Positions 2,544-18,940 of a DNA stretch of 22,763 nt are shown here, in pieces. The translations under genes were made by a program, and so were the position numbers. Below the pieces are notes generated by a model. The model saw only the letters and a program-made list of their open reading frames with translations. It did not search any database and was not told the origin of the DNA. The DNA lies in the NCBI GenBank assembly GCA_039683575.1, contig JBDKRC010000051.1:1-22763 (forward strand), read 5' to 3'. Source of the stretch: Armatimonadia bacterium. Its GTDB lineage: Bacteria > Armatimonadota > Zipacnadia > Zipacnadales > UBA11051. Position 1 is the first letter of the stretch. The number at the start of each line of letters is the position of its first letter.

Positions 2544-2572
2544 TTGACATCCCCCTCCCCCCGATGTTAAAT
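2544..2572 (+). promoter_or_regulatory. Putative sigma70-type promoter for the 2612-5230 gene
   Basis: TTGACA (2544-2549), 17 nt, TTAAAT (2567-2572), about 40 nt upstream of the likely ATG at 2612. Confidence 0.45.
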
Positions 2573-2611
2573 ACATACCGTCACCCAACCACAGCCCGCG
2601 AGGACCTCAAC

Positions 2612-5230
2612 ATGCGCGTCGCTCTGCCCCTCCTTCTTCTGGCCCTCATCCCTGCCTCGTTAGCCGCCACACCCGTCAACTTCGGCCTCTGGAACGACCC
2701 CGCCCTTGCCCAGTGGTCGCCCACCAATCCCGCCAGCCTTGTCCCCCTGCTGACCACTCCCGACACGCAGGTCGTCACCATCTCAACCGCTGACCTGCTC
2801 GACCCTGCGACCCTCTCGGCTGACGGCATGGCCTGCCTCGTCATACCATACGCCGCCTACCCCGCCGCTGGCCGCGAGGCGCTGGACCGCTTTCTCAAAG
2901 CCGGTGGCGACCTGATGCTGTTGGGTGGCGACGCCTTCGCCCAACCACTCTACCGCGTCGGCGATCGTTGGCTCCCCCTCGCTAGCTTCGGCCCTGTTCA
3001 GCAACAAGTGACCGGCCCACAACAATGGGACCTCAGCCACAAGGGCGACACCGACCAGATGACCGTGACCGGCGAGGGCACTGCCGCCAAACCATACGTC
3101 TTCACAACCGAAAACCTCGTCGCCTTCCAGTACGCCGGCCTCTCCCCCACCCTCGCCCCCCAAACCGCCGGCTTGGTCTTCGAAGCCCGTGGCGGCCCCT
3201 CTACGGCCCTGATCTGCCTCGAAGCCCGCGAACAGGACGGCTCGCGGTGGAAGCAGGTTGTGCCGCTCGAGAGCAACTGGCGCGAGGTCCGCATCCACCT
3301 CGCCAGTTTCTGCGCCTATGCCAGCAAGGACCGCGGCAAGCCCGGCGACTACCTGCACCCCGAGAAGCTCAGCAGCCTCTACTTCGGCCTCGTCAAGAGC
3401 ATGGTCACCGGCGGCCAGCAGCGCCTCGAGATCCGCAACCTGCGCTTCGAGCAAGCCGCCGTCAGCCCCGCAGCCGCAACGGCTGCGGGCATTCCACTGC
3501 CCGGTCGCGCTCTGGTCGAGAAGACCCTCGGTGAGGCAGTGGTACCCGGCCCCGCAGGCCGTTGGCCCAGGCTCTTCGGCGACCTGCTGGAAGGGCCGCT
3601 CGACCTTGAGACCGCCCCGGATCAGCCGCTCCTCCTTCAGCCCGTCAGGCTAAGAGTCACAGGGGCTCAGGCGGTTCAGGCAGCACCGACATATGGCAAC
3701 GCGCGCCTCTTCCCCGAGGCCAACCTGCCCGTCCGCTTCATGCCCATCATCACGGCACCGACCCGCCCCCGGCAGACTCCCCTGGCAGCGATTACAGCCC
3801 ACCTGGGCGGGCCTCAGGCGGGCAGCCTGCAGTTCGCCCTGGGCCTGCCTCATACGGACCTCGCCGCGCCCCAAACCGCTCCCCTGCGCGACCTGATCAA
3901 GTCCGTCGCCCACCTCATGGCCACTGGCGCATTTCTTGGTCAGGCCGCGCCACGATTCGTACCGACCAACGAGCGACTGGAGGCGGTCGTCTTCGAGCAG
4001 CCCGTCTACCAGCGCCAGATCGCGGAAGCACCGCTACAACTGCGTACAGAGCTTCTGAGCCGCTTCTACCCGAAACCGATGGCCCGCACCGTCCCAGTCC
4101 CGGCCGCTGAGGGCAAGGTGACCAGTGTTGAGTGCTGGAGCCGGCTGAAGGCGTTTGACTGGCGAAACTTCACTCACGACGTAAGCCTCATTCGGGGCTC
4201 AAGGGTGGTGGATGAGGCGGTGTGGCGGGTGGATGCTAAACAGGCTCTGAGGGACCTCTGCGACTTCCTGGCGGCCTCTGGGGCTGATGACGGGAAGTTC
4301 AGCAAGGTCTACTTCATCGACAGCCGCGGGGCACGGACGCTGCTGGCCGGGTATGAGATATTCCAGGAAAAGAGCTATCGGATCGGCGCGATCAAGTGGG
4401 CCAAGGCCATGATCGCCGAGCAGCGGCCGGATGGGGGGTACCGGATGGGATATGGCATCACCAGTCGGGGGGAGGAGTGCTATGTGGCGGACGGCGGGGA
4501 GATCGCGCTGGGCATGGCGCGGGTGGCGGCCTATGCGGACGCAAAGGACCGCAGAGCCATCCAGGAGAGCCTCAGAGCCTATTTCCGCTATCGCGAAGAC
4601 TTCCGCTGTGAGGGCGGTGGAATCGGGGTTGGGTGGTGTCTTACAGACTATGGTAGCCGTCCGCTGCAACCCGGCGGCCTGAAGGAACCAAAACGCATCA
4701 TGGCCCCCGAGTTGAACACCTATACCATAACCTGCACCCTGGGCGCGGCATGGACCTATGCGACGATGATGAACAATGAAGCAGAAAGGCAGGCTACGGT
4801 GCGGGATGAGGAGTGGCTCAGGCCGCGGATCAAGAGCCTCGGCGGGGCGGCAGCGGAGAGCTACATGCTGGCCCACCTGCTGGCCCCGAACGAGGGAATG
4901 AGGAAGACCTACGCGGAGGTGCTGAAGAGCAAGTTCATTGACAACATGGTGGGCCAGGAAACGGCGTGGTGGCTCTCTGGGGGCGGCAGGAGCGCTTTGA
5001 ACCTCGCGGTGCTGGCATATTACCAGGCCCAACTGGGCCCCGACCCGCGGGTGGAGGCACAGATGGCACGGGCGACGGGAGCGATGGCCGCGCGGCAGTC
5101 GCCAACGTCGATCTACCACCTGCTTGGCAGGACGGATTTGAACCATGATGAGTGGCTCTACCTGTGCTTTGGTGGGCTGGGATTGGCCGAGGTAGTGGAG
5201 CCGGGAGTGACGCTGAAGAGGATGGATTAG
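2612..5230 (+). CDS. Large secreted hypothetical protein with a carbohydrate-binding-like central domain and a helical C-terminal domain (possible glycan-active enzyme)
   Basis: Long ORF with GC-biased codons. Likely start ATG 2612 (GAGGA upstream; MRVALPLLLLALIPASLAA is a signal peptide). The segment FEARG..LEAREQDGSRW..VPLESNWREVRIHLASF resembles CBM11/CIA30-like beta-sandwiches. Confidence 0.75.
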   Translation: MRVALPLLLLALIPASLAATPVNFGLWNDPALAQWSPTNPASLVPLLTTPDTQVVTISTADLLDPATLSADGMACLVIPYAAYPAAGREALDRFLKAGGDLMLLGGDAFAQPLYRVGDRWLPLASFGPVQQQVTGPQQWDLSHKGDTDQMTVTGEGTAAKPYVFTTENLVAFQYAGLSPTLAPQTAGLVFEARGGPSTALICLEAREQDGSRWKQVVPLESNWREVRIHLASFCAYASKDRGKPGDYLHPEKLSSLYFGLVKSMVTGGQQRLEIRNLRFEQAAVSPAAATAAGIPLPGRALVEKTLGEAVVPGPAGRWPRLFGDLLEGPLDLETAPDQPLLLQPVRLRVTGAQAVQAAPTYGNARLFPEANLPVRFMPIITAPTRPRQTPLAAITAHLGGPQAGSLQFALGLPHTDLAAPQTAPLRDLIKSVAHLMATGAFLGQAAPRFVPTNERLEAVVFEQPVYQRQIAEAPLQLRTELLSRFYPKPMARTVPVPAAEGKVTSVECWSRLKAFDWRNFTHDVSLIRGSRVVDEAVWRVDAKQALRDLCDFLAASGADDGKFSKVYFIDSRGARTLLAGYEIFQEKSYRIGAIKWAKAMIAEQRPDGGYRMGYGITSRGEECYVADGGEIALGMARVAAYADAKDRRAIQESLRAYFRYREDFRCEGGGIGVGWCLTDYGSRPLQPGGLKEPKRIMAPELNTYTITCTLGAAWTYATMMNNEAERQATVRDEEWLRPRIKSLGGAAAESYMLAHLLAPNEGMRKTYAEVLKSKFIDNMVGQETAWWLSGGGRSALNLAVLAYYQAQLGPDPRVEAQMARATGAMAARQSPTSIYHLLGRTDLNHDEWLYLCFGGLGLAEVVEPGVTLKRMD

Positions 5231-5718
5231 GTGACAAGGTATCGGCGAGTCGGGAAGGGAACTCTGGTGCGTGAGGGGGGCGCCAAGCTGCACAAAACCG
5301 AAAAATGGTGCGACCGGATTCGGCGCTGTGTGGCTCTCAGGCCCTGCTGCGTCCAGCAGAGCAACGGATTAGCTTAGAACGGCTCTCAGGGGCCTCTACG
5401 GGGCTCTGAGCGGAATCGGGTGTCAGAACGAATCCAGACGGTGGATTCCAGCCGTTTCAGGGCAGGGCAAAACAGCCGCTACTGGGCTCTGAAGGGCTGC
5501 TACGGCGATTTGGAGGATTGGAGCAGTTGCGAATCGCTCTGTAAGCCACGTAGAGGCCCTTTTCCGGCGTTTTCGGCATATGAGCAAGTGTCGGGTGACG
5601 CGGAACGGAGTCTACGCTCACCGAGGAGAGGCGCGGGATCATGTGGAGCGGCAGCCGACCATCATAGTGACAATCAACACAGTAGTCTATCGTGCCATCG
5701 GAAGGACCTTAGCAATCC

Positions 5719-6803
5719 GCCCCTTCGGGGCTCAAGATGAGATGCACTTGGTACCAGGGCCTTGCGGCCCTGGCTAGATGCCGGGCGGCCCTTCGGGCCT
5801 AACGACAACAGAAACGTCAACGACACAGGCAGCGACGACGAAGACGGCAACGCCTCAACGACCGACGGCTCGACCGCGTTGGGATCGAGCACGATCCGAA
5901 GTTGCTGTGGCGGTGAGGCTGCCGCCCCTTCGGGGCTCAATGTGAGATGCGCTTGGGACCAGGGCCTTGCGGCCCTGGCTAGATGCCGGACGGCCCTTCG
6001 GGCCTAACGACCACAGAGACGTCAACGACGCAGGCAGCGACGACGAAGACGGCAACGCCTCAACGACCGACGGCTTGACCGCCTTGGGATCGAGTACGAT
6101 CCGAAGTTGCTGTGGCGGTGAGGCTACCGCCCCTTCGGGGCTCAAGATGAGATGCGCTTGGGACCAGGGCCTTGCGGCCCTGGCTAGATGCCGGACGGCC
6201 CTTCGGGCCTAACGACAACAGAGACGTCAACGACACAGGCAGCGACGACGACAACGCCTCAACGACCGACGGCTTGACCGCGTTGGGATCGAGTACGATC
6301 CGGAGTTGCTGTGGCGATGAGGCTACCGCCCCTTCGGGGCTCAATGTGAGATGCGCTTGGGACCAGGGCCTTGCGGCCCTGGCTAGATGCCGGGCGGCCC
6401 TTCGGGCCTAACGACAACAGAAACGTCAACGACACAGGCAGCGACGACGAAGACGGCAACGGCTTGACCGCGTTGGGATCGAGTACGATCCGAAGTTGCT
6501 GTGGCGGTGAGGCTGCCGCCCCTTCGGGGCTCAAGATGAGATGCACTTGGTACCAGGGCCTTGCGGCCCTGGCTAGGTGCCGGGCGGCCCTTCGGGCCTA
6601 ACGACCACAGAGACGTCAATGACATAGGCAGCGACGACGAAGACGGCAACGCCTCAACGACCGACGGCTTGACCGCGTTGGGATCGAGCACGATCCGGAG
6701 TTGCTGTGGCGGTGAGGCTACCGCCCCTTCGGGGCTCAAGATGGGTAGTGCCCGGTACCAGGGCCTTGCGGCCCTGGCTAGGTGCCGGGCGGCCCTTCGG
6801 GCC
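5719..6803 (+). repeat. Tandem array of ~205-bp units (three-hairpin REP-like cassette + linker + copy of tnpA 3' end), six cassettes
   Basis: GCCCCTTCGGGGC starts at 5719, 5924, 6129, 6328, 6518 and 6723 (periods 205, 205, 199, 190, 205). Each is followed by CCAGGGCCTTGCGGCCCTGGCTAG and GGCCCTTCGGGCC. Confidence 0.97.
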
Positions 6804-6815
6804 TAACGACAACAG

Positions 6816-6938
6816 AGACGGCAACGACCCGACGGCAACGACCCGACGGCAACGGCCTGACGACAACGGCCCGACGGCAACGGCCTGACGACAACGGCTT
6901 GACGGCAACGGCTTGACGGCAACGGCTTGACGGCCTGA
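6816..6938 (+). repeat. Degenerate 14/17-bp minisatellite (GACGGCAACGGCTT-like)
   Basis: Repeated GACGGCAACGACCC / GACGGCAACGGCCT / GACGACAACGGCTT / GACGGCAACGGCTT units directly after the sixth cassette. Confidence 0.9.
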
Positions 6939-6975
6939 GGAGAATGTCCGCAAGCACTGTATTGCATGCTCTGCT

Positions 6976-7056
6976 GGCCCGAAGGGCCAGAAGGAATCTA
7001 GCCAGGGCCGCAAGGCCCTGGAACCGGGGGGCCACTAGCTTGAGCCCCGAAGGGGC
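6976..7056 (-). repeat. Inverted copy of the three-hairpin cassette immediately upstream of tnpA (left-end-like)
   Basis: GGCCCGAAGGGCC (6976-6988), CTAGCCAGGGCCGCAAGGCCCTGG (6998-7021) and GCCCCGAAGGGGC (7044-7056) are exact reverse complements of the array hairpins, with the same 13 and 22 nt spacing. Confidence 0.95.
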
Positions 7057-7064
7057 GACAGCGA

Positions 7065-7517
7065 ATGGCAGGTACCTTTGTCGCGATATATTGCCACGTG
7101 GTGTTCAGCACCAAGCACCGACAGCCTTTCATACGTGAGGACATACGGCCCCGCGTTCATCATTACATCGGCGGTATTGTCCGCGCTCAGAAGAGCCAGA
7201 ATGTCGTCATCGGCGGCACCGAAGACCACGTGCACATTCTGATGGGCCTGAACAAGCAGGTGGGGTTGTCAGACGCAGTGGCTGAGATCAAGGCCAATTC
7301 GTCACGGTGGATTCACGAGACGTTTGTCGATCTACGCGAATTCGCGTGGCAACCGGGATACGGTGCGTATAGTGTGCATCCAGATGGGCTCGAGAAGACA
7401 AGGCGGTACATTGAGGGTCAGGAGAGCCACCACCGGGAGATTGGCTTCGAAGAGGAGTTCCGGCAATTGCTTGACCGGCTTGGGATAGAGTACGATCCGA
7501 AGTTGCTGTGGCGGTGA
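7065..7517 (+). CDS. tnpA: IS200/IS605-family Y1 HUH transposase (TnpA; REP-associated / RAYT-like context)
   Basis: 150 aa. N-terminal HVVFSTKHR, HUH motif EDHVHIL (H55, H57), EIKANSSRWI, FAWQPGYGAYSV and catalytic YxxxQ (YIEGQ, Y115). No tnpB downstream. Confidence 0.95.
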   Translation: MAGTFVAIYCHVVFSTKHRQPFIREDIRPRVHHYIGGIVRAQKSQNVVIGGTEDHVHILMGLNKQVGLSDAVAEIKANSSRWIHETFVDLREFAWQPGYGAYSVHPDGLEKTRRYIEGQESHHREIGFEEEFRQLLDRLGIEYDPKLLWR

Positions 7518-7524
7518 GGCTGCC

Positions 7525-7810
7525 GCCCCTTCGGGGCTCAAGATGAGTAGTGCCCGGTACCAGGGCCTTGCGGCCCTGGCTAGATGCCGATCGGCCCTTC
7601 GGGCCTAACGACAACAGAGACGTCAACGACACAGGCAGCGACGACGAAGACGGCAACGCCTCAACGACCGACGACTCGACCGCGTTGGGACAGAGTACGA
7701 TCCGGAGTTCCTGTGGCGGTGAGGCTGCCGCCCCTTCGGGGCTCAAGATGAGATGCGCTTGGGACCAGGGCCTTGCGGCCCTGGCTAGATGCCGGGCGGC
7801 CCTTCGGGCC
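7525..7810 (+). repeat. Two further cassettes of the 205-bp array downstream of tnpA
   Basis: Cassettes at 7525 and 7730 (period 205), with the same linker and tnpA-tail copy between them. Confidence 0.97.
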
Positions 7811-7830
7811 TAACGACAACGGCAACAACC

Positions 7831-7907
7831 AACGGCTTGGCGACGAACGGCCAACGACGAACGGCCAACGACGAACGGCCAACGACGAGCGGCCAACGAC
7901 GAACGGC
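7831..7907 (+). repeat. 14-bp minisatellite (AACGACGAACGGCC)n, about 5 copies
   Basis: CGACGAACGGCCAA repeated tandemly right after the last cassette. Confidence 0.9.
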
Positions 7908-7979
7908 GTTGGGTGCTGCTTCAGTATCCATACAGGCGAACCAGAACACCGAACACGCTTTGCATGAGGAGAATCTTAC

Positions 7980-8735
7980 ATGTCAGTTCAACGGATGTTT
8001 GATCTCACCGGCAAGATTGCCGCAGTCACTGGCGGGGCGCGGGGGATTGGGCGGGCTTGCGCTGATGCTTTGCAGGAGATGGGCGCCAGGATCGCGCTGA
8101 TCGATGTGCTTGAAGACCGGGTGAAGCAGTCGGCAGACGAGATGGGCAACGGGACCATCGGCATCGTGTGCGACTGCACGAACAGCGCCAGCGTCACCGC
8201 GGCCTTCGACCAGGTTAAGGCGCACTTCGGGCGACTGGATATTCTTGTGACCAGCGCCGGGATCTGCATCTGGTCACCGGCAGAGGAGATGAGCGAGCAA
8301 GACTGGGACAAGGTGGTAGACCTCAACCTCAAGGGTACCTTCCTGTGCTGCCAGGCCGCCGGGCGGATCATGATTGGGCAGAAGTCAGGGTCCATCATCA
8401 ACGTCGCCAGCATGTCCGGGAGCATCGCCAACCGCCCGCAGGCGCAGATTGGCTACAACTCGTCGAAGGCCGGCGTCATGCACTTGACCCGGAGCCTCGC
8501 CGTCGAGTGGGCACAGCATAATGTGCGGGTCAACAGCATCAGCCCGGGGTACACGCTGAGCGAGTTGACCAAGCAGTTCCCGCAGTATTTCGATGGGTGG
8601 ATGCCGTATATCCCAATGGGGCGGATGGCGCAGCCGGAGGAGTTGGTGGGGGCGGTGGTATATCTGGCGAGCGACGCGGCGAGCTATACGACGGGGCATG
8701 ATCTGGTGATTGATGGCGGGTATACGTGTTGGTGA
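7980..8735 (+). CDS. SDR family NAD(P)-dependent oxidoreductase (sugar/polyol dehydrogenase-like)
   Basis: TGGARGIG Rossmann motif, NVASMSG, catalytic YNSSK and VRVNSISPGY; GAGGAG Shine-Dalgarno upstream. Confidence 0.95.
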   Translation: MSVQRMFDLTGKIAAVTGGARGIGRACADALQEMGARIALIDVLEDRVKQSADEMGNGTIGIVCDCTNSASVTAAFDQVKAHFGRLDILVTSAGICIWSPAEEMSEQDWDKVVDLNLKGTFLCCQAAGRIMIGQKSGSIINVASMSGSIANRPQAQIGYNSSKAGVMHLTRSLAVEWAQHNVRVNSISPGYTLSELTKQFPQYFDGWMPYIPMGRMAQPEELVGAVVYLASDAASYTTGHDLVIDGGYTCW

Positions 8736-8924
8736 GGCGGGGAATCGGGAATGGGGAATCGGGAATCGGGGACCGAACGAGCGGTTACTAAGGGGAGGCG
8801 GTTGGGGAGGAGCTTTACAGGATGTACAGGATAGAGGCAAGGATGAAGAGGATACGGCGAGAGGCGTGAGGAGGAGCAGAGGGGGAGGCGGTTGGGGGCG
8901 AGGGGGTGGTCGGTGATGACGGCT

Positions 8925-8959
8925 GCGGGCAGGATGCCCGCGCACCTACGGCTACGGCG
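8925..8959 (+). repeat. Dispersed 35-bp REP-like repeat, exact second copy at 11128-11162
   Basis: GCGGGCAGGATGCCCGCGCACCTACGGCTACGGCG occurs twice; related hairpins at ~14599 (GCGGGCGAGACGCCCGC) and ~14643. Confidence 0.9.
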
Positions 8960-9051
8960 TGCGAGAGCGGCTAGGCGAGGCCTGGTCGGTGATATCGCGG
9001 TCTGGTGACCGCTCCTACAGGCATACGGGTTGGAGTACGGGAGGTATGGCA

Positions 9052-10926
9052 ATGAGACTGCTAATTGGTATAGCGCTGATGGCGCTGGCTACGGCGGGGT
9101 TTGCGGATCTTACTTTGGTCAAGGATGGTGTGTCGGCTAGCGTTATTGTTCTGCAGTCCAAGCCGTCGGAGAGTGCCGAGGTGGCTGGCTTGAAGCTGCA
9201 GACTTATCTGGAGAAGATGAGTGGGGCCAAGGTGGAGATTGTGCGGGAGCCGGCGGCGGTGCCGGCGGGGATGCTTCCTGTACGGATCGTGTCGGGCGCG
9301 GTGAATGGGAAGGCTACCGGGTTCCCGCCGAAGATGGCTGGCGAGGAGATCCGGCTCAAGGCTGATGCCAAGGAGCTGGTGGTCAGCGGGTGCGATTGGT
9401 CGGCGACCAACTATGGGACCAACGGCACCACCTGGGCCGCGATGGAGCTTCTGGAGCGGCTGGGCTGCCGGTGGCTGTGGCCCGGAGAGCTTGGGGAAGT
9501 GGTGCCCTCGGTCAAGACCGTTACGGTGCCGGGGAATCTCGACTACAGCTTCACGCCGCCGGTGATCCAGCGGCATATTCGGATGCCGAAGTGGAATGAG
9601 CGGCAGCAGGCGGGGCTGGATAAGCTCGGGATCACGAAGGAGCAGGCGGAGGCGCTGTTTGCGTCGGGGGCGGACTGGTGGCTGCACAACCGCAATGGCA
9701 AGCAGGGGCAGATGTCGTACGGGCATGCGTTTGGGGACTACTGGGAGCGGTTCGGCAAGGACCACCCAGACTGGTTTGCACTACAGCCGGATGGGACGCG
9801 GAACCAGGGGACAAAGTCAACCGAACGGGCGCGGCTCTGCGTGTCGAACCCGGAGTTGCAGAAGCAAGTGGCGGCGGATGCGATTGCGAAGCTGAAGGCC
9901 GACCCGTCGCTGTACTGTGCGTCCATATCGCCCAATGATGGCGGGCCGCAGTATTTCTGCACTTGCGAGAAGTGTGAGGCGTGGGACGCCAAGGACGGTC
10001 CGGTGATCGAGTTTAGGATCAAGGAAGGCAAGCACGTTTCGCTTACAGACCGGTATGTGAAGTTCTATAATGCGGTCGCGGAGATTGTGGCCAAGGAGAT
10101 GCCTGACCGGAAGCTCGGAGCGTATGCCTACTCGTGCTACAGCACGCCGCCGCTGCATGTGAAACTGCACCCGAACGTGTTCATCGGGTACGTGGGGTTC
10201 ACGTATCTGAACGATGCAGCGCGGAAGGTATCGCAGGACGCATGGATGGCGTGGGCCAAGGCCGCGCCGGGCGGGTTGTTCCTGCGACCGAACCTGTACA
10301 TGACCGGCATGGGGTTCCCGGTGTTCTACCCGCACCGGCTCGGGGCGGACCTGAAGATGTGCGCTGACAATGGCATGAAGGTGACGGACTTCGATACCTG
10401 CATGAACCACTGGGCGCTCAATGGGATCGATTACTACATCACGATCCGGCTGCTGTGGGACCCGTCCAAGAGCGTGGATGAGATCCTGGATGACTACTAC
10501 AAGACTGGCTTCGGACCGGCGGCGGCGCCCGTGAAGAAGTACTATGAGGCGCTGGAGCAGATGTCGGACAAGCTGGCCGCGAGCAACAAGTACGAGGGGT
10601 ACAAGGTCAACCAGGAGCTACTGGCGGGGCAGTTCACCGACGAGTTCCTGGCGCAGTTGAACGGGTATCTGGACGAGGCGAAGAGGCTCGCGGGGGCGGA
10701 TGAGAAGCTGGCCAAGAGGGTGGAGTTCGTGCGGATCGCGGTGGACTTTGCGAAGCTCAACCGGGACTGGGTGTTGGCGAAGGCGGCGGAGAAGGCCGGG
10801 GAGGGCGACAAGAAGGCGCTGCGAGAGGCGCGGGAGAAGGCGGAGGCGGCGAAGCTGGAGTATTTGAAGGGGTTGGGGCCGAATATGGGTATCAATGGGG
10901 CTTATTTGATGTTTTACGGGGTGTGA
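9052..10926 (+). CDS. Secreted DUF4838-like protein (putative carbohydrate-active)
   Basis: GGAGGT then ATG at 9052; signal peptide. Motifs LERLGCRWLWPGELGEVVP, HPDWFALQPDGTR, LCVSNPE, SISPNDG, FCTCEKC, YAYSCYSTPP and RLLWDP..DDYY..FGPAA match my recollection of this family. Confidence 0.85.
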   Translation: MRLLIGIALMALATAGFADLTLVKDGVSASVIVLQSKPSESAEVAGLKLQTYLEKMSGAKVEIVREPAAVPAGMLPVRIVSGAVNGKATGFPPKMAGEEIRLKADAKELVVSGCDWSATNYGTNGTTWAAMELLERLGCRWLWPGELGEVVPSVKTVTVPGNLDYSFTPPVIQRHIRMPKWNERQQAGLDKLGITKEQAEALFASGADWWLHNRNGKQGQMSYGHAFGDYWERFGKDHPDWFALQPDGTRNQGTKSTERARLCVSNPELQKQVAADAIAKLKADPSLYCASISPNDGGPQYFCTCEKCEAWDAKDGPVIEFRIKEGKHVSLTDRYVKFYNAVAEIVAKEMPDRKLGAYAYSCYSTPPLHVKLHPNVFIGYVGFTYLNDAARKVSQDAWMAWAKAAPGGLFLRPNLYMTGMGFPVFYPHRLGADLKMCADNGMKVTDFDTCMNHWALNGIDYYITIRLLWDPSKSVDEILDDYYKTGFGPAAAPVKKYYEALEQMSDKLAASNKYEGYKVNQELLAGQFTDEFLAQLNGYLDEAKRLAGADEKLAKRVEFVRIAVDFAKLNRDWVLAKAAEKAGEGDKKALREAREKAEAAKLEYLKGLGPNMGINGAYLMFYGV

Positions 10927-11229
10927 TGGGGAGAGAGGACAGGATGGACAGGATGAACGGCGGATGGGCAGGATAAGGCAAAGGCAGGGGTGGAGGTGGA
11001 GATAACGGCGGGCCGGCTGCGCGGTTGGGCTGCGCATGCGGCCCCTCCAGACGGCGAGAGGCGGTGGCGGAGGTGGTCGGGGACAACGGCGGGCCGGCTG
11101 AAGCTCGGCCCCTCCACACGGCGAGAGGCGGGCAGGATGCCCGCGCACCTACGGCTACGGCGAACGGCGAGGCCGGCACGGAGTGTCGGCCCCACGCTAA
11201 CATAAGACGGCAGTTCAGGGAGATTGGTT

Positions 11230-12081
11230 ATGAAGATTTGTGCTACTACTGTGATGATGCCGCAGTATGACATGCGGGAGACGGCGGAGGTTTTGGGGAG
11301 ACTTGGGTTTGATGGTGGTGAGTGGCGGTGCCGGTATATTCCTGAGGCCCAGAAAGATAAGGACTACTCGCCCTGGGGTAACGTGAAGAATGACTTCTCG
11401 CCCGACAATCTGAGCGAGCGGGGCGAGGAGCTCCTGGCGGTTAGCAAGGAGTTCGGGCTGGAGATCGTGGGGCTGGCCACGAGCATGGCCGCGACGCAGC
11501 TTGAGGAAGTGAAGAAGGTGGCGGAGGGTTGCGCCAAGTGGGGCATCAGCAAGTTCCGCATCGGGGCGCCGCGTGGGTATGACCATGAGGGAAACCATCG
11601 GGAGCTCATCTCCGATACGATCAAGGCGTTTGAAGAGGCCCTGAAGATCACGCGGGCCAACGGCGTGCGGGTGCTTCTGGAGATCCACCGCAACACCGTG
11701 GCTTGCAGCGCGTCGCAGGCTTACCTCGTGGTCAAAGAGTTCGACCCGAAGGATGTGGGCGTGATTTTCGATATAGCTAACATGAGCCTGGGGCAGGGGC
11801 ATGAGCCGACCAAGATGGGGCTCGACCTGCTGGGCGACTACGTGGCGCACGTGCATGCGGGCGGCGGGCAGCCGGTGGCCACCGAGCGCAATGAGAAGGG
11901 GCAGCTTCAGTACCGGTGGGACACGGTGGACCTGGCAGACAGCATCATTGATGTGCCGCTGTTTGTAAGCGAGCTCAAGGCGATGGGGTATGGCGGTTTC
12001 ATCTCCGTCGAGGACTTCCGTGAGATGGACCTGGAGGAGAAGATTGGGCGGCAGCTTGGGTATTTGAGGTCGCTGGAGTAG
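11230..12081 (+). CDS. Sugar phosphate isomerase/epimerase family (xylose isomerase-like TIM barrel)
   Basis: LGFDGGEWR, GVRVLLEIH, VGVIFDIAN, VAHVH and MGYGGFISVED metal-binding motifs; likely start ATG 11230. Confidence 0.9.
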   Translation: MKICATTVMMPQYDMRETAEVLGRLGFDGGEWRCRYIPEAQKDKDYSPWGNVKNDFSPDNLSERGEELLAVSKEFGLEIVGLATSMAATQLEEVKKVAEGCAKWGISKFRIGAPRGYDHEGNHRELISDTIKAFEEALKITRANGVRVLLEIHRNTVACSASQAYLVVKEFDPKDVGVIFDIANMSLGQGHEPTKMGLDLLGDYVAHVHAGGGQPVATERNEKGQLQYRWDTVDLADSIIDVPLFVSELKAMGYGGFISVEDFREMDLEEKIGRQLGYLRSLE

Positions 12082-12111
12082 AGAGCGCGGAGGGGGAGCG
12101 GGAGAATGTGG

Positions 12112-12198
12112 GAAAACGGGGACAGACACCATTTTCCGAGCGGCGTTGGTGGTAGATGACCGGGTAGGTTGGGGAAAATGGTGTCAGTCCCCATTTTC
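12112..12198. repeat. REPIN-like inverted pair (GGGGACAGACACC / GGTGTCAGTCCCC family)
   Basis: GAAAACGGGGACAGACACCATTTTCC (12112-12137) and GGAAAATGGTGTCAGTCCCCATTTTC (12173-12198), 24/26 complementary. Confidence 0.85.
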
Positions 12199-12330
12199 GT
12201 CGGTGATGACGGCCGGCAGGGTACGAGCTCCGTTGCGACGCGGACGTCGCTTTGCCATACAGCAGAGGCCGGGCGGACCACGGTCCGCCCCCACCGGCCG
12301 CCATGAAGTGGCGACCCACGCGGTTGAGAG

Positions 12331-13887
12331 ATGATGCATACTGACAGGGAGACGATGAGCCGCAATTACCGCTACCTGAGGCAGCGGCTCATGATCGTGG
12401 GTGGGTATCTGGGGCAGATCCTGACCGGGTTCGGCGTGCTCCTGGTGCTGCCTGCAGTGGTGGGGATCATCTATCGGGAAGGGCGGGCGGCGGGGGCGTT
12501 TTTGGTGACCGGGGCAGTGACAGCGGTGGTGGGGCTGCTGCTGAGGAGGTTCATGGGGAGGGGGCGGCTGGGGACGCGGGAAGCGGTGCTGCTCTGCACG
12601 GGGGCATGGGGGGTGTGCTCGCTGGTGGCGTCGATCCCGATGCAGGCGATGCTGCACCACCCTTACATCGACACGCTTTTCGAGTCGGTTAGCGGGCTGA
12701 CAACGACAGGCCTGACGGCGTTCGCGGGGCTGGATGTGGTTCCGAAGACCGTGCTGTTCTGGCGGTCTACCAGCCAGCTTCTGGGGGGACTGGGCATCCT
12801 GTCGTTCTTCCTGCTGGTGAGCTATCAGGGGAACGCGGCGCACCGGCTGTTTCAGACGGAGGCCTCGAAAGCGACGGTGCCGCGGCCCGTGCCGAGCATG
12901 CGGCGCACGGTGATCATCACGTGGATGATCTACGGCCTGCTCCTGGTGTTCAACATTGCGGTGCTCGTGCTGCTGCGGGTTGGATTGTTTGATGCCATAA
13001 ACTATGGGTTCACAACCACCTCGACGGGCGGGATGTCGCCGCATGACATGGGGCTGGCGTACTTCCGGGCGAACGGACACCCATATGCGCTGCCGATTGA
13101 ACTGGCGACCATGATCTTCATGGCGCTGAGCGGGCTGAATTACCTGCTTTTGTACCGGGCGATCACGGGACGGGTCAAGGTGCTGTTTACCGGGGTGGAG
13201 GCGCGGCGCTACTGGATGCTGATGCTGTTTGGGCTGGCCCTGATCATGATCGAGAGCCTGAGCGTACCGGCGACGTGGGCGAACCTTGGACAGCCGACAG
13301 CGACGGGGCAGATCGGCGGCAACGTGGGGTATGAGACGTGGCGGCTGGCGAGCTTTCAGGTGGTGTCGCTCGTGAGCACGACGGGGCATGTGACGCTGCC
13401 GCTGGAGCACGCGTTCTTTGGCCCGGCGGCACGGCAGTTGTTCGTGTTCATGTTGCTGCTCGGCGGGTGCGCGGGGTCAACGGCAGGTGGGCTGAAGATC
13501 GTGCGAGCGATGGTGCTGAACCGCAGCCTGCGGCAGGAGATCCGGAAACTGTCGCATCCCGAGGGCGCGACGCTGCCGGTGGTGCTCGAAGGGCATGTGC
13601 TGGAGGCGCGGACGGTGGGGTCCATGGCGGCCATGGGGTCTGCGTGGCTTATCGCCGGGGTCGTCGGCGGGATCATCATCTCGCTCAATTCGGGCCACGA
13701 GGCGCTGGGTAGCCTGTCGCTGTCGCTATCGGCGTTGAGCAATGTTGGCCCGAGCCTGCTGCCGGTAGGGGCAGTGGCGGCGCTGCCAGCGGGGTCGAAG
13801 GTGCTGCTGATGGTGTGGATGATTGCGGGAAGGCTGGAGATCCTGCCGGTGCTGGCGCTGCTGTCGGCGCGGACATGGCATGAGTGA
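12331..13887 (+). CDS. trkH: TrkH-family potassium uptake membrane protein
   Basis: Multiple TM segments with pore-loop motifs FESVSGLTTTG, STGGMS, VSTTG and LSNVGP, plus LGGLGI, GGCAGSTAGGLKIVR and MIAGRLEI. The start may be ATG 12355. Confidence 0.92.
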   Translation: MMHTDRETMSRNYRYLRQRLMIVGGYLGQILTGFGVLLVLPAVVGIIYREGRAAGAFLVTGAVTAVVGLLLRRFMGRGRLGTREAVLLCTGAWGVCSLVASIPMQAMLHHPYIDTLFESVSGLTTTGLTAFAGLDVVPKTVLFWRSTSQLLGGLGILSFFLLVSYQGNAAHRLFQTEASKATVPRPVPSMRRTVIITWMIYGLLLVFNIAVLVLLRVGLFDAINYGFTTTSTGGMSPHDMGLAYFRANGHPYALPIELATMIFMALSGLNYLLLYRAITGRVKVLFTGVEARRYWMLMLFGLALIMIESLSVPATWANLGQPTATGQIGGNVGYETWRLASFQVVSLVSTTGHVTLPLEHAFFGPAARQLFVFMLLLGGCAGSTAGGLKIVRAMVLNRSLRQEIRKLSHPEGATLPVVLEGHVLEARTVGSMAAMGSAWLIAGVVGGIIISLNSGHEALGSLSLSLSALSNVGPSLLPVGAVAALPAGSKVLLMVWMIAGRLEILPVLALLSARTWHE

Positions 13888-13942
13888 GAGGCAGGGGTCA
13901 GGGATCAGGTTTCAGGGGGCAGGAACGGCGGGCGCGCGAGGT

Positions 13943-14026
13943 TGTCATCCTGAACGAAGTGAAGGATCGCGGGGCTTGGTGGGGGCCGGAGATTCTTCGT
14001 CGCAGACGACGCTCCTCAGAATGACA
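13943..14026. repeat. Short palindromic element with terminal inverted repeats
   Basis: TGTCATCCTGA...TCAGAATGACA ends, with internal GAAGGATC / GATTCTTC pairing. Confidence 0.8.
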
Positions 14027-14167
14027 CGCGTGTTGGGGGGCTGTCGGGGGCAGTGCCCCCCAAATGGCGGGGGTCAGGGGTCAGAAACGGCTGACGGCTA
14101 ACGGCGACGGCCTGGGGTTTGGCGGCGGAGGAACGGCCATAGACTTCGCTTTGAGGAGAGATGTGCC

Positions 14168-14554
14168 ATGAGTGAGAAGCGGTGTTTGCGTAGCGAGCGG
14201 ATTCCTCCGGCGGTGGGGCCCTACTCGCAGGCGGTGCGGGCCGGAGGGTTCTTGTTCTGTTCGGGTGTGATCCCTCTGGACCCGGAGACGAAGAAGCCCG
14301 TTGAGGGTGGCATTGCGGAGCAGACGCGGCGGGTGCTGGATAGCCTGACGCTGCTTTTGGATGATTGCGGGACCGCGATGTGGCGGGTCGTGAAGACAAC
14401 CGTGTTCCTGCAGAACATGGAACATTTCGCCGAGTTCAATGCTATATATGCGGAGTACTTCCCGCATGATCCGCCGGCGCGCAGTACGGTGCAGGTGGCG
14501 CGGCTACCGCTTGACGTACTGATTGAGGTGGAGGCGATTGCGCAGCTACCGTGA
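14168..14554 (+). CDS. RidA (YjgF/YER057c/UK114) family enamine/imine deaminase
   Basis: PAVGPYSQAV, LFCSGVIPLDP, VVKTTVFL, FNAIYAEYF, PPARSTVQVARLP and IEVEAIA. Confidence 0.95.
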   Translation: MSEKRCLRSERIPPAVGPYSQAVRAGGFLFCSGVIPLDPETKKPVEGGIAEQTRRVLDSLTLLLDDCGTAMWRVVKTTVFLQNMEHFAEFNAIYAEYFPHDPPARSTVQVARLPLDVLIEVEAIAQLP

Positions 14555-14789
14555 CAACCGAGTAGAGGGCAGAGCGCCCAACAGCCAGTCCGGTGGGGGC
14601 GGGCGAGACGCCCGCACTACGCGTGGGGGCTGGACCGGTGAGGGGCGAGACGCCCGTCCTACGCGGGTTGGTGTGGGGAGCGGGACGACGCGTGGAGGCG
14701 GTGTGTTCTGGTGTTGGCGCGCGGTCGGGCTCTGGAGAGCCCTTCCACAGGTATGTGGCGCCCTTCCACAGGTATCGAGACAGCTTCCG

Positions 14790-17018
14790 GTGCTGAGGCA
14801 GCTTCAGGTGTTAGCCCTGATCGCGCTGCTATTCGCGGTGCCGGCGGGGGCGGCGGAGCTTTTGCTCAACGGAGGCTTTGAGGCGCTTGGCACTGAGGGG
14901 GTGCCGGAGGGGTGGTCGTTTGCCAACTGGGGGGAGGTTAAGTATGTCAGCGGCAAGAGCGTCGGGGGAGCGGCCTTCGGCAAGAAGGCGGTGCAGCTTG
15001 AGGGCACCATCTACCCCGTCGCGTTTGGGATTTTCTCTTACCCCGTTACGTTGCCTGATCCCCATCCTTCTGAACTGCTACTGACGTTGTCTTACCGCAC
15101 CAAGGGCAGCCCGCTGCCTGAGGCGTCGCTGGTCACCTTCACTGACGACTTCTCGGTGCAGGAATGGAAGACGCCGCAGCTTGCGGCGGAGGCGATGCCA
15201 CTGGACCCGAGCCCGGCGTGGCGGTCGGTGACCTGGCGTGTGCATGTGCTCCCGGCGGCGCGGCAGGCCGTGGTGCTGGTACGGATCCATGGGGCGGGGA
15301 TCCTGACCCTGGACGCGGCCTCGCTGAAGACCTATCCGACCGAGGTGCAGTGTGAGGTGCTGGCGCCGGGGGTGCTCACCAATGTGAAGGGCGCGCGGGA
15401 GGCTCAACTGAAGCTGACCAACCACTCGGAGGAGGAAGTTACGGGACGAGTGGAGCTTGAAGCGGCCGCGCTCAAGGGACCCACGGCGAAGACGGGGATG
15501 GCAGTGACGCTGGGGGCGGGGCAGTCGCGGGAAGTGGCGCTGCGGTACAGCTACCCGGCCGACAAGGCGGCTGCGCTGACGGTGCGGGTGGTGGGGAAGC
15601 AGCAGGATGTGGTGTACGATCAGGTGGGCATGGCGCTGCCGGGGCTTTTGGAGGGGCGGCTGGTGCGGCCGGCGTTTCGCTCGACGATTCTGCCCTCGAT
15701 CCCTATCGCGGATGTATCGGCGACGGGGATCGTAAATGCGACACCGGAGCTTCGGGGGAAGCTGCGGATGGTGGCGAGGTTGACGGGGGCGGGGGTGAGC
15801 TCGAATGAGTTTGCGGCGGATGAGAGCGGGCGGTGGCAGGTGTCGCTGCCGACATCGGGGCTGCTGGCGGAGTCATATATGGTGCAGATCATGGCCTATG
15901 ACGGCAAGGCTCAGGTGGGGGAGCTTGATCTGCCGCTGATGAAGACTGACCCGAAGGCCGCGGAGACGGGCTATGATGAGCGGATGCGGCTGTGGGTGAA
16001 CGGGCAGTTGCGGATGCCGGTGGGGATCTTCTATGCGCTGGAGAAGCCGGATTTTGTGGATGCGGCGGAGGCGGGGTTCAATACCCTCGTGCTGCCGTCC
16101 CGGAGGGCCGGAGCAGATGCCATCGAGGCGGTGTCTAAGCTGGGGTTGAGTGCGATCATCTCCTCAGCCAATGCCGACCAAGAGTTTTGGAAGAACGTGT
16201 ACAGTAAGTACCAGGTGGACCCGACGGTGACGGGGTGGTATGTGCTGCAGAGGCCGGAGGCGCAGAGCCCGCCCGCGCACCCGCTGGCGATGGCGGACCT
16301 GTACGGGCGGCTGCGCAAGCTCGACCCGCGGCGGCCGGTGTACCTGGCGCTCAGTTCGGTGTCGCGGCTGGAGCCGTACGTGCCGTGGTGTGATGTGCTG
16401 ATGCCATGGACGGAGCCGGAGCCGGCAGGGGACCTGCGGTCGGTGGATGCGCTGCTGCAGCGGGCGATGCAGGTGGCGGGCGGGGAGAAGCCGGTGTGGC
16501 CTGTGATCCAGATCGCAGGGGCCGCGCATACCCAGGACCCGCGGCTCGACCCGAAAACCACTGGCCGGGCGCCGACAGCGGAGGAATTCCGGTGCATGGT
16601 GTATCTGTCACTGGCGCGCGGAGCGCAGGGGTTCTTTGTATATCCCTTCCAGATGGCGGCGTCGAAGACCACGCTGGACTATTCGGTGAAGCGGGACGCG
16701 CCGGAGCTTTGGGAGATGATCAAGCGGGTGGGGACGGAGATGAAAGCGCTGGCGCCGATTCTGCTTGAAGGAGAGTCGGTGGCGGTGGAGACGGACAACA
16801 AGGCCATTGCAATGCGGGCGCTGCGGTATAAGGATGCAACGTATGTGATATGCGCCAACCCGTACGCGCAGGTGGTGCCGGTGAGCTTCAAAGTGCCGAG
16901 CGTGGCGGGGACGGATCTTGAGGTGGCGTTTGACCAGCGGCGGATCGTGGGGCCGGGCGGCGGGCAGTTTGGGGATCTGCTAGACGCGCGGGCGGTTCGG
17001 GTTTATATGGGGCGGTAG
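14790..17018 (+). CDS. Large secreted hypothetical protein, N-terminal CBM-like domain and C-terminal glycoside-hydrolase-like barrel
   Basis: Signal-like VLALIALLFAVPAGA then ELLLNGGFE..VPEGW (CBM4/9-like start). C-terminal VNGQ..PVGIF, AEAGFNT, LRKLDPRRP and RCMVYLSLARGAQG. Start GTG 14790 is inferred; the ORF-track extension from 14523 runs through repeats. Confidence 0.75.
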   Translation: MLRQLQVLALIALLFAVPAGAAELLLNGGFEALGTEGVPEGWSFANWGEVKYVSGKSVGGAAFGKKAVQLEGTIYPVAFGIFSYPVTLPDPHPSELLLTLSYRTKGSPLPEASLVTFTDDFSVQEWKTPQLAAEAMPLDPSPAWRSVTWRVHVLPAARQAVVLVRIHGAGILTLDAASLKTYPTEVQCEVLAPGVLTNVKGAREAQLKLTNHSEEEVTGRVELEAAALKGPTAKTGMAVTLGAGQSREVALRYSYPADKAAALTVRVVGKQQDVVYDQVGMALPGLLEGRLVRPAFRSTILPSIPIADVSATGIVNATPELRGKLRMVARLTGAGVSSNEFAADESGRWQVSLPTSGLLAESYMVQIMAYDGKAQVGELDLPLMKTDPKAAETGYDERMRLWVNGQLRMPVGIFYALEKPDFVDAAEAGFNTLVLPSRRAGADAIEAVSKLGLSAIISSANADQEFWKNVYSKYQVDPTVTGWYVLQRPEAQSPPAHPLAMADLYGRLRKLDPRRPVYLALSSVSRLEPYVPWCDVLMPWTEPEPAGDLRSVDALLQRAMQVAGGEKPVWPVIQIAGAAHTQDPRLDPKTTGRAPTAEEFRCMVYLSLARGAQGFFVYPFQMAASKTTLDYSVKRDAPELWEMIKRVGTEMKALAPILLEGESVAVETDNKAIAMRALRYKDATYVICANPYAQVVPVSFKVPSVAGTDLEVAFDQRRIVGPGGGQFGDLLDARAVRVYMGR

Positions 17019-17501
17019 TGGGGAGAGGGACGGCGAAAACAGAAAACGGAGAACGGAAAACAGTCGGAGGGGGAACCTCTAGATTGGGGAAAATGGGGAC
17101 GGAGCCTTTGCGCGGCGCCAGGTGAGTTGGTTCTGGCGAGAGGTGTTGGCGCGCAAAGTCTCCGTCCCCATTTTTGGCGTGTGGTGGTCGGGGATGACGG
17201 CGTGGGCCGGATGCCGACGGTGAGGCTGTCGACCGTGAGGTGCGACAACCCGTGCGCGCGGGCGGTTCTGGTCTAGGTGGGGCGGTAGTGGGGAGAGGGA
17301 CGGCGAAAACAGAAAACAGAGAACAGAAAACAGTCGGAGGGGGAACCTCTAGATTGGGAAAAATGGGGACGGAGCCTTTGCGCGGCGCCAGGTGAGTTGG
17401 TTCTGGCGAGAGGTGTTGGCGCGCAAAGGCTCCGTCCCCATTTTTGGCGTGTGGTGGTCGGGGATGACGGCGTGGGCCGGATGCCTACGATGAGGCTGTC
17501 G
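16985..17501 (+). repeat. 270-bp-period tandem duplication of the upstream gene's 3' end plus intergenic palindromes
   Basis: 16985-17231 and 17255-17501 are near identical, with a handful of substitutions. Confidence 0.95.
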
Positions 17502-17594
17502 GCATTCGGCCCCTCCTTGTGATGAAAGCTGGTCGGGGATAACGGCGTGGGCCGGCTGAAGCACGGCCCCTCCGAAGAGGCGAGACGGCTACGG

Positions 17595-18746
17595 CTACTT
17601 CGTGCGGTTCAGGAGAGCCTGGGCTCTTAGCTTCCAGAAGAGGTCGGCGGAGCTTTGGATGGTGTCCGATAGCTGGGCCTCGGCTACCCAATCGCCAGCG
17701 TCGGCCTGGGCTTTGAGGCTGGTTATCTGCCCCAGCAGTTTCTCCACCTGTGGTTTGTAGGCTTTGCCCTCTTCGGCGGCATCGGCCAGCAGTTGGTTCG
17801 ATTCGCTGGTCAGGGCATCGGCTTTGAGTGACTGGAGCGGGAGCGGGCGGAAGTCTTCCTTTTGCAGGTCCGACAGGTCCTGGGCGCCGCAGGTCCGGAG
17901 GTACTTTTCGGCCTCCGCGTTGGTGCGTCCCTTGAGGTCGTAGAAGCAGAAACGCGCTTCCTTCGCGTCTGGCTTGAGGGTCAGTTCGGTCACTACGGGG
18001 TAGTTGGTGATGCGGACGACGCCGCTTTGCAGGGCTTCGGGGGCGACGATGGCAGCGCAGGGTCCGGCACCCTCGCCTTTGGCGACGTCGAAGACCGTGT
18101 CGTAGTAATACAGGAACGTGTCCTTGTCGGGCTCCAGAGTCAGCGTCTGGGGCTCTTTGGCGTCAGTGCGGGGCGTCATGCAATGGCGCTCGCCCTTGCG
18201 CCGATTGGTGAAGAAACTGGGGTAGCAGGTCAGGTTGACCTTGACCTCCTTGAGGGCTTTGCCCGGGCGCGGCTGCCACTTGAGCAGGGCGCGGACGTGG
18301 TTGCTGGCGGGCGGGAGGATGATGCGCATGGATACTTCGGCATCGGGGTGCTCCCAGATGACCTGAAAGCCGCCGCGGGCGCCGGATTCGGTGGCGCGCA
18401 TGTCGCGGAGCTTGTATCTCGTCACTTCCTCGCCGTTGATGGTCATGCGGAAGAAGCCGCCCCAGTACCAGTTGGCTGGGACAGGCTCGGGCATACCGAA
18501 GTTGCCCTCCGCGGACGGGCGCAGGTCGCCGTGAGAGGGGTCAGTGCAGCCAGAGTAGCGGAACTGGTAGCGGACGAGGCTGTTTTGCAGGGAGATGAGG
18601 TGGGTGAGGACGGAGTGGCCGGCGGTGCATTCGTAGTTGGAGGGCGCGGTTGTGGGACCGGAGTCGATGGTCAGGACGAGGGGGCTCTGGGCGAAGGCGG
18701 CGGAGACGAGCAGGGTGAGGATCGCGGTGAGGGTGAGGCGTTGCAT
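17595..18746 (-). CDS. Secreted hypothetical protein
   Basis: 383 aa ORF; signal peptide MQRLTLTAILTLLVSAAFA; GGAGG upstream; helical C-terminus. Confidence 0.8.
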   Translation of the reverse strand: MQRLTLTAILTLLVSAAFAQSPLVLTIDSGPTTAPSNYECTAGHSVLTHLISLQNSLVRYQFRYSGCTDPSHGDLRPSAEGNFGMPEPVPANWYWGGFFRMTINGEEVTRYKLRDMRATESGARGGFQVIWEHPDAEVSMRIILPPASNHVRALLKWQPRPGKALKEVKVNLTCYPSFFTNRRKGERHCMTPRTDAKEPQTLTLEPDKDTFLYYYDTVFDVAKGEGAGPCAAIVAPEALQSGVVRITNYPVVTELTLKPDAKEARFCFYDLKGRTNAEAEKYLRTCGAQDLSDLQKEDFRPLPLQSLKADALTSESNQLLADAAEEGKAYKPQVEKLLGQITSLKAQADAGDWVAEAQLSDTIQSSADLFWKLRAQALLNRTK

Positions 18747-18830
18747 GTGTTGGCCTCCACGGGGAATCAGTTGTCAGTTGTCAGTTGTCAGTTGGGAGAC
18801 AACGGCGACGACCAGAGCGGCGAAATGTCG

Positions 18831-18914
18831 GGAACGGGGACAGACCCCAATTTCGCATGACGGTTTGAGGGACTCGGAAGGTCAGGTTGCGAAATCAGGG
18901 TCAGTCCCCATTCC
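18831..18914. repeat. REPIN-like inverted pair of the same GGGGACAGACCCC family
   Basis: GGAACGGGGACAGACCCCAATTTCGCA ... TGCGAAATCAGGGTCAGTCCCCATTCC. Confidence 0.8.
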
Positions 18915-18940
18915 GGGGTTGGTCGGTGATAGCGGCAAGG

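Follow-up and report, generated by a model that had tools for sequence, protein, structure and literature searches.

How can copies of the 3' end of a gene come to lie on both sides of that gene, each joined to the same hairpin-bearing repeat? This question is raised by contig JBDKRC010000051.1 of an Armatimonadia bacterium (phylum Armatimonadota; assembly GCA_039683575.1), of which the whole stretch of 22,763 nt that we analyzed is called the window here. The window contains tnpA (7065-7517, + strand), a gene encoding a Y1 HUH transposase that stands inside a tandem array. The array units combine a cassette with three hairpins, a linker, and a copy of the last 49 nt of tnpA, hereafter the tail. 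We found that the cassette is also dispersed in other genomes and that tnpA fills the space between two inverted copies of it, in what may be a REPtron-like arrangement. The main value of the locus lies in a testable pairing of an orphan enzyme subclass (subclass 1.2 of the Y1 transposases) with an orphan motif (Acido-Lenti-1, Rfam RF01687).

The tandem array around tnpA

Tandem Repeats Finder reported a repeat with a period of 205 at 5717-6828 (5.5 copies, 90% matches, score 1825). A 20-mer from the central hairpin of the cassette had 10 exact occurrences in the window, compared with 0.03 expected, and 10 was reached in none of 100 shuffled sequences. Upstream of tnpA it was present on the + strand at 5754, 5959, 6164, 6363, 6553, and 6758, and downstream of the gene on the same strand at 7560 and 7765. 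The two remaining occurrences were on the - strand at 7002-7021 and in a solo copy at 22605. A preliminary description of this DNA had counted six direct cassettes upstream and two downstream with a period of about 205 bp, and both the reported period and the 20-mer positions agree with it. The 24-nt end of tnpA, including the stop codon, was found seven times with at most two mismatches (the gene and six copies), while 0 occurrences were expected. When compared with the gene over 49 nt, the six tail copies were identical at 42-47 of 49 positions, which bears out the copies of about 50 bp of the tnpA end, stop included, noted earlier in the units. The array of tail copies and cassettes around tnpA is real, as observed.

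Read along the + strand, the array consists of cassette c1, five repeats of linker, tail, and cassette that end with c6, a 14-nt tandem tract, an inverted cassette, tnpA, cassette c7, one further linker and tail leading to c8, and a second 14-nt tract. Cassette c1 (5717-5800, +) forms the left end, with unique sequence and no tail before it, and scored 75.2 bits with R1, a covariance model of the whole cassette. Five short units follow at 5801-6720 (+), delimited by repeat alignment and tail search, and each has a linker of 52-67 nt and a 49-nt tail. The linker length of about 66 bp given previously falls within this range, although it had not captured the shorter ones. The tails of these units are at 5868-5916, 6073-6121, 6272-6320, 6462-6510, and 6667-6715 (+), and interleaved with them are the cassettes c2 (5922-6005), c3 (6127-6210), c4 (6326-6409), and c5 (6516-6599), also on the + strand. 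Cassette c6 (6721-6804, +), recognized by the 20-mer and the variant table, is the last before the gene-bearing unit and carries a variable segment of the c7 type. The cassettes measured about 84 nt, rather than the 81 bp first proposed.

The full unit, denoted F, comprises 802 bp (6805-7606, +), as given by the c6-c7 spacing of 802 nt and by unit alignment, and contains an A/C-rich 14-mer tract, the inverted cassette, tnpA, and c7. The tract (6817-6934, +; 8.4 copies in Tandem Repeats Finder) lies between c6 and the inverted cassette. The inverted, or left, cassette (6975-7058, -) holds the exact 20-mer on the - strand, scored 82.9 bits with R1 at 6963-7068, and abuts the tnpA start codon with its hairpin-1 side. 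Directly after the tnpA stop comes c7 (7523-7606, +), which has its variable segment in common with c6 and scored 87.9 bits with R1 at 7513-7618 and 30.7 bits with RF01687 at 7560-7606. The downstream short unit (7607-7722, +), defined by tail search and alignment, contains the most diverged tail (7674-7722, 42/49). Cassette c8 (7728-7811, +), detected by the 20-mer, RF01687, and R1, forms the right end of the array and is followed by the second 14-nt tandem tract (7807-7907, +; 7.2 copies in Tandem Repeats Finder). The solo cassette (22567-22651, +), identified by the 20-mer and by R1 (87.6 bits), is located just past the stop of a folC-like gene; it has no tail, and a 7-nt repeat continues from it to the end of the window.

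It is very improbable that an artefact of repeat assembly accounts for the array or for its copy number. Short reads are difficult to assemble over repeats of about 205 bp that are 90-97% identical, and the closest TnpA homologues among the matches listed were on very short contigs of 1073 and 3225 nt. Against an artefact, every unit carries private substitutions, two units have private indels of 6 and 15 nt, and both ends of the array pass cleanly into unique sequence. The units are 205, 205, 199, 190, 205, and 205 nt long, with pairwise identities of 90.3-97.2%. Such substitutions and indels are unlike what collapsed or looped assembly usually produces; the copy number itself comes from the assembly alone.

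We rejected the array as a coding sequence. A Pfam search with 10 open reading frames (ORFs) of the array, on both strands and at E up to 0.1, returned 0 families, and the frame of the tails was open for only 30-37 codons, with no methionine (ATG) start.

The transposase and its cassettes

The tnpA gene encodes a protein of 150 aa, whose class was examined with Pfam, NCBIfam, relatives in the PDB, and alignment. The protein contains H55-V-H57, W95-Q96, the motif YIEGQESHH starting at Y115, and a C-terminal tail of about 30 aa. Pfam PF01797 (Y1_Tnp) matched residues 7-119 with 86.7 bits (cut-off 23). In an alignment with 12 homologues, H55-V-H57 and Y115 were in invariant columns, and Y115 was aligned with the tyrosine of YIENQ in the TnpA proteins of ISDra2 and IS608, which are also the closest solved structures in the PDB (E about 1e-5). 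The NCBIfam IS200 model NF033573 was passed marginally (58.4 bits, cut-off 55), while the model for REP-associated tyrosine transposases (RAYT), NF047646, failed with 19.8 against a cut-off of 80. PDB chains of TnpAREP, the transposase of repetitive extragenic palindromic (REP) elements, gave no match to the protein at E up to 0.01. Judged by its sequence, the protein is nearer to IS200-type TnpA than to TnpAREP. No tnpB-like ORF was found beside tnpA; as described before, the gene at 7065-7517 stands without tnpB, and it is flanked by the array and, at 7980, by an SDR gene.

Nearly all of the 120 homologues listed, from a total of 686, were 147-155 aa long. The closest among the matches listed were 75% and 71% identical, and the others about 50% or lower. 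DHVH, WQ, YIEGQESHH, and the conserved C-terminal tail were common to the 12 aligned homologues, and the tail copies of the array correspond to the sequence encoding the end of this conserved C-terminal domain. According to Table 1 and the accompanying text of Quentin et al. 2018 (PMC6006769), subclass 1.2 of the Y1 transposases has the signature DH[IV]H, WQ, and Y---Q--HH, a length of about 148 aa, and a specific C-terminal domain. The same parts of that paper describe the subclass as low-copy, not IS-like, 'REP: no', and found mostly in Cyanobacteria and Bacteroidetes; the portion of its supplementary text that we consulted contains no entry for Lentisphaera, Koribacter, Armatimonad, or Planctomyc. 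By the signature read off the alignment, the TnpA of the window fits subclass 1.2. The two agree in length (148-150 aa), in all three motifs, in the conserved C-terminal domain of about 30 aa, and in having no IS-like features, and TnpA is domesticated-looking. They differ in that the subclass is recorded in print as 'REP: no' and mostly from Cyanobacteria and Bacteroidetes, whereas here dispersed hairpin cassettes flank the gene in a member of the Armatimonadota. The nearest named relatives of the folC-like gene of the window, at 63-65% identity, come from metagenome-assembled genomes of this phylum.

The cassette consists of hairpin 1 (5 bp), a variable segment of about 20 nt, hairpin 2 (8 bp, invariant in the window), CTAG with a short linker, and hairpin 3 (5 bp). 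Its loops are strand-specific. In all 10 copies of the window, the central hairpin is followed by CTAG, which also reads CTAG on the other strand; in two cassettes from other genomes (L012 and L053) it is followed by CTAC, which is GTAG on the other strand. Covariation was found in the stems, with 88.2% of cells paired and a score of 0.161, compared with 0.087 for shuffled alignments and reached in none of 500, in an alignment that was fitted to the model and in which hairpin 3 was partly out of register.

We searched the window against Rfam. There were 0 matches in the whole window at gathering thresholds, and a match to RF01687 surfaced only when 2.4 kb were searched with reporting by E-value. 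In each of the eight direct cassettes of the array, hairpins 2 and 3 aligned to model positions 1-46 of 46 with 29-31.6 bits (E 1e-4 to 5e-4), below the gathering cut-off of 37 bits. The model comprises an 8-bp hairpin, GCUA, a linker of about 9 nt, and a 5-bp hairpin over its 46 positions. Cassettes with the same central hairpin in two other genomes scored above the cut-off (44 and 42.9 bits in L030, 41.7 and 40.8 bits in L018). To judge from these alignments, the window cassette and Acido-Lenti-1 are related. They share the two hairpins and the GCUA linker over all 46 positions of the model, and regular series of the motif are also present in the Rfam seed alignment. The differences are the scores of the window copies, which remain below 37 bits, and the extra 5' hairpin and variable segment of the cassette. 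Table 1 of PMC2864571 rates Acido-Lenti-1, a motif of Acidobacteria and Lentisphaerae, as probably an RNA. RF01687 is filed as a small RNA (sRNA), with no function assigned in the published descriptions seen, and the published passages naming the motif that we located contain no tie to a transposase.

To find cassettes elsewhere, we scanned 185,579 species genomes with the 20-mer, which uncovered 65 loci. About 21 of these were true cassettes with the three-hairpin plan, and they came from metagenome-assembled genomes (MAGs) of Planctomycetota, from Phaeodactylibacter and Lewinellaceae, and from one Granulosicoccus MAG. In 12 of the 20 other cassette loci, a second cassette was present in opposite orientation, with 5-8 nt between the hairpin-1 ends of the two, forming head-to-head pairs without a gene. 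The rest included an overlapping pair (L018) and a convergent pair (L004), and the others were single. The head-to-head pair of the window is separated by exactly the tnpA ORF, with the R1 matches ending at 7068 and 7513. The solo copy in the window and the pairs without a gene in other genomes establish the cassette as a dispersed element. No tnpA homologue was found beside the cassettes by tblastn at E up to 1e-3 in the 65 loci, each of about ±2 kb, as expected of a system with many elements and few genes. Arrays or short tandem repeats beside cassettes were absent from 22 loci (21 cassette loci and the plasmid locus described below), where most of the 21 are short-read MAG contigs unable to hold an array.

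About 40 of the 65 loci were rejected, as the G+C-rich 20-mer had matched there by chance within the genes of unrelated taxa. Three of the chance matches, from Pseudomonadota (L017, L040, and L042), fell in a common and apparently conserved coding stretch unrelated to the cassette, which reads by eye as the 5' end of a gene like murD, with heptad-like runs of GTGAGGN in front of it. One central hairpin at 1304-1529 of locus L036 is common to two opposite cassette halves of different subtypes, and it looks as if two inverted cassettes had recombined within the palindromic stem.

A second case of a transposase gene between cassettes was found on a Persicobacter plasmid (L066). It carries a full-length TnpA homologue, 37.6% identical to that of the window and flanked by inverted cassettes, one of which scored 35.7 bits with RF01687, below the cut-off. 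The transposase gene is thus exactly central in a cassette pair in two phyla. A cassette pair is present at 10 places on this plasmid. Pairs without a gene lie near the homologue; two of them form a 390-bp tandem that includes flanking sequence, and one has about 700 nt of its right flank in common with the gene-bearing copy. The pairs at 1100-2350, 3730-5150, and 6860-7620 belong to larger segmental repeats, which reach 700 nt in length and are 93% identical, and one flank resembles, by eye only, a YD-repeat coding stretch.

The association of TnpA with the cassette, suggested in the preliminary description, stands as far as layout is concerned: the gene fills a head-to-head pair, pairs without a gene occur in 12 of 20 loci, and the plasmid locus has the same layout. 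As for the action of the enzyme, we infer that TnpA binds or cuts the cassette. The odds are about even that the locus is REPtron-like, with tnpA located between two inverted copies of its cognate, dispersed REP- or REPIN-like element.

The cassette could instead act as RNA, either as an sRNA or as a 3' untranslated region (3'-UTR) stabilizer or processing signal, in which case the array would be a selected multi-copy RNA locus and the transposase merely adjacent. We regard this as improbable. The RNA judgement of the authors of RF01687 (PMC2864571, Table 1) would favor it, as would the strand-specific loops and the fact that cassettes directly follow the stop codons of both tnpA and the folC-like gene. 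On the other side, there were 0 intrinsic terminators in 5200-8100, and no promoter-like or terminator-like site fits the units. The inverted pair is the usual form of the cassette in other genomes, so that the motif is present on both strands. A role of the transposase as mere neighbor also fits poorly with a gene exactly central in the pair in two phyla, and the spacers of the array are copies of each other and of a gene fragment.

A REPtron-like organization is apparent when the locus is compared with known systems, as far as these are covered by the sections of the papers cited. As in a REPtron with RAYT and REPINs (REP doublets), a single Y1 gene is bracketed by inverted hairpin elements (6975-7058, -, and 7523-7606, +) that are also dispersed (solo copy at 22567-22651), and the Persicobacter plasmid shares this feature (PMC6006769). 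Similar to REPINs and bacterial interspersed mosaic elements (BIMEs), the dispersed cassettes occur as inverted doublets, seen in 12 of the 20 loci elsewhere (PMC3116915), and a tandem cluster that includes flanking sequence adjoins the transposase gene (PMC3116915, PMC3333891). The differences concern the protein and the element. The motif Y---Q--HH (YIEGQESHH) replaces the Y---NP of RAYT class 2 (PMC6006769), consistent with 19.8 bits against the cut-off of 80 for the RAYT model. The cassette has three hairpins over about 84 nt, whereas a REP has one, and the tetranucleotide at the hairpin foot on the bottom strand is CTAG, while that of canonical REPs is GT[AG]G. In contrast to REPtron arrays, the array unit here carries the gene's own last 49 nt. 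With IS200/IS605 elements the locus has in common its closest solved relatives (IS608 and ISDra2 TnpA) and the pass with NF033573 (58.4 against 55), and gene-less derivatives that retain the ends also exist there. Unlike those of subclass 1.1, to which these elements belong, the ends here are inverted cassettes of about 84 nt and not subterminal hairpins in direct orientation, there is no tnpB, and only a single gene copy lies within the 22.7-kb window. The locus works like a REPtron with REPIN-type elements, with a protein outside the RAYT class.

Origin of the array

We compared the short unit, denoted M, with unit F. The two share the first approximately 27 nt after the cassette, a similar A/C-rich stretch, and the last 49 nt of the gene. 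The 205-bp M is accordingly the 802-bp F from which the inverted cassette has been lost, together with the remainder of the 14-mer tract on one side and the first 404 nt of tnpA on the other. A motif search located three copies of GCTTGAC in the 14-mer tract (6897, 6911, and 6925) and one in the gene (7469). Of the six M junctions, those at 6073, 6272, 6462, and 6667 also have this heptamer, whereas GCTCGAC is present at 5868 and ACTCGAC at 7674. The window contains 10 GCTTGAC sites, while 3.3 are expected. The shared ends, together with GCTTGAC at both end points of the deletion, identify M as an internal-deletion derivative of F. There are two short stretches in which each of the six tails departs from the gene, and no tail matches the gene exactly in either. 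These shared changes, absent from the gene, mean that the six tails descend from a single progenitor. The variants are distributed among the units as a mosaic: c1 equals c5 and c2 equals c4 in the variable segment, c1 equals c4 in the linker, and c6 equals c7 around the gene. This indicates exchange or conversion among the units.

A sequence of three steps could have produced the array. The direct cassettes on either side of unit F would first have exchanged with each other, which duplicated F in tandem. The downstream copy of F would then have become M through a deletion with its end points in GCTTGAC microhomologies. Finally, unequal exchange, slippage, and gene conversion between cassettes would have multiplied M and spread it to either side of the one intact gene. 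Upstream copies of the gene's end had been put forward as beyond the reach of simple slippage; a tandem duplication, one microhomology deletion, and unequal exchange would give the same layout, so that, with M as a deletion derivative of F, these copies need no special mechanism. In our estimate there is an even chance that the array was amplified by the host, through recombination or slippage of replication between direct repeats rich in hairpins, and nicks made by TnpA may have stimulated the process. Ordered REPIN clusters beside RAYT genes are likewise tandem repeats that include flanking sequence, according to the part of PMC3116915 consulted.

Alternatively, as the preliminary description had inferred, TnpA may have built the array itself. 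In this scenario, TnpA would have cut single-stranded DNA (ssDNA) at or near cassettes and either joined the ends into a unit-length circle, which re-entered at another cassette, or primed a rolling-circle-like copying; flanking DNA (the 3' end of the gene) would thereby have been captured and units added on either side of the gene. We consider this possible, though doubtful. The model is not new: in the section of PMC3333891 around Fig. 7, Ton-Hoang et al. already proposed circle excision, reintegration, and rolling-circle amplification for REP/BIME arrays. The same section reports that the cuts made by TnpAREP lie at some distance from the hairpin and that strand transfer in vitro assembles tandem BIME copies, which is a precedent for an array built by TnpA. 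Regular same-strand series are also frequent in the Rfam seed sequences of Acido-Lenti-1 from Lentisphaera araneosa (spacings of 192, 195, 196, 200, 110-115, 74, and 69 nt), the Persicobacter plasmid has the 390-bp tandem of cassette pairs with flank, and nine of the 10 window cassettes are on one strand, the G-rich one. On the other hand, no junction requires an enzyme, and the sole readable deletion junction is the 7-nt microhomology, far from the hairpins. The mosaic of unit variants is as in homologous exchange. Activity of subclass 1.2 is only putative, and the protein is nearer to IS200-type TnpA than to TnpAREP.

Several points weigh against a REPtron-like locus amplified by host recombination. 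In the variable segment, the M-type cassettes are unlike c6 and c7 at about 7 of 15 positions, a divergence far above the 2-7 of 49 positions that separate the tails from the gene. M is therefore not a simple recent copy of the present F, and ectopic conversion or an older history is needed. Several exchanges must also be assumed to bring M to both sides of F. The regular series in L. araneosa hints at family-specific array-building rather than chance recombination. The array is absent from all 21 other cassette loci, mostly short-read MAG contigs unable to hold one. Homologue loci with context number three, namely the window, the Persicobacter plasmid, and a Bernardetia plasmid with a homologue of 35.6% identity (L067). 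The last was rejected as a further case of the same layout, as it has 2+2 inverted repeats of another kind and no match to RF01687 or R1. Between host recombination and cleavage with strand transfer by TnpA as the amplifier, the sequence alone cannot decide.

Two loose ends of the literature meet at this locus, namely subclass 1.2, which has no REP-like partner in the part of PMC6006769 consulted, and the orphan Acido-Lenti-1 motif. Tentatively, Acido-Lenti-1 may not be primarily an sRNA but the ssDNA recognition cassette of subclass 1.2 Y1 transposases, which would build same-strand arrays by cleavage and strand transfer and thereby capture the DNA between cut sites, here their own 3' end. 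If true, this would provide a function for an abundant orphan motif and a substrate for an orphan enzyme subclass, and tandem amplification driven by TnpA would gain a natural system defined by its sequence. Should the cassette be the substrate, enzyme and motif could both be tested directly with oligonucleotides and one purified protein of 150 aa. The array is also a clean natural case for the question of whether REP/BIME tandem clusters arise by host recombination or by the transposase, with units that contain private variants and a gene fragment that can be dated.

Other repeats and genes in the window

Tandem repeats of 7 or 14 nt were found at six intergenic places of the window (6817-6934, 7807-7907, 8738-8772, 17305-17333, 18767-18794, and 22658-22763). 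All four cassette 3' sides without a following short unit face such a tract. After the solo cassette (22567-22763), the repeat is the 7-nt GAGGCGT, in at least 15 copies, and runs off the end of the window. As no such tract lies beside the cassettes in the 22 loci elsewhere, the tracts seem to be a habit of this genome and not of the cassette.

A 16-nt motif, GGTCGGKGATRRCGGC, was present in seven copies with at most one mismatch (8908, 11075, 12198, 17186, 17456, 17531, and 18921), compared with 0.03 expected. Every copy is on the + strand, within or next to a gap between larger ORFs, regardless of the strand of the neighboring genes. The motif may represent a polar signal that depends on orientation, or a further family of repeats. 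A 270-bp unit at 16985-17501 (1.9 copies, 95% identity) is a second palindromic element family; each copy has a near-perfect inverted repeat of 25-26 nt with a 35-nt loop and a run of GAAAACA heptamers.

GC skew was +0.2 to +0.35 from 8 kb onward (8000-22763), irrespective of gene strand, with the + strand G-rich. It was -0.3 around 2-3.5 kb and changed sign near 3.5-4.5 kb, inside the 888-aa ORF at 2564-5230. As a guide to the lagging-strand template, the skew is only suggestive. No Pfam family was assigned to this ORF or to those at 11215-12132 (305 aa), 14523-17018 (831 aa), and 17595-18746 (383 aa). Inside the gene for a beta-helix protein (317-2326), a 78-nt unit is repeated at 693-877 in 2.4 copies with 75% identity.

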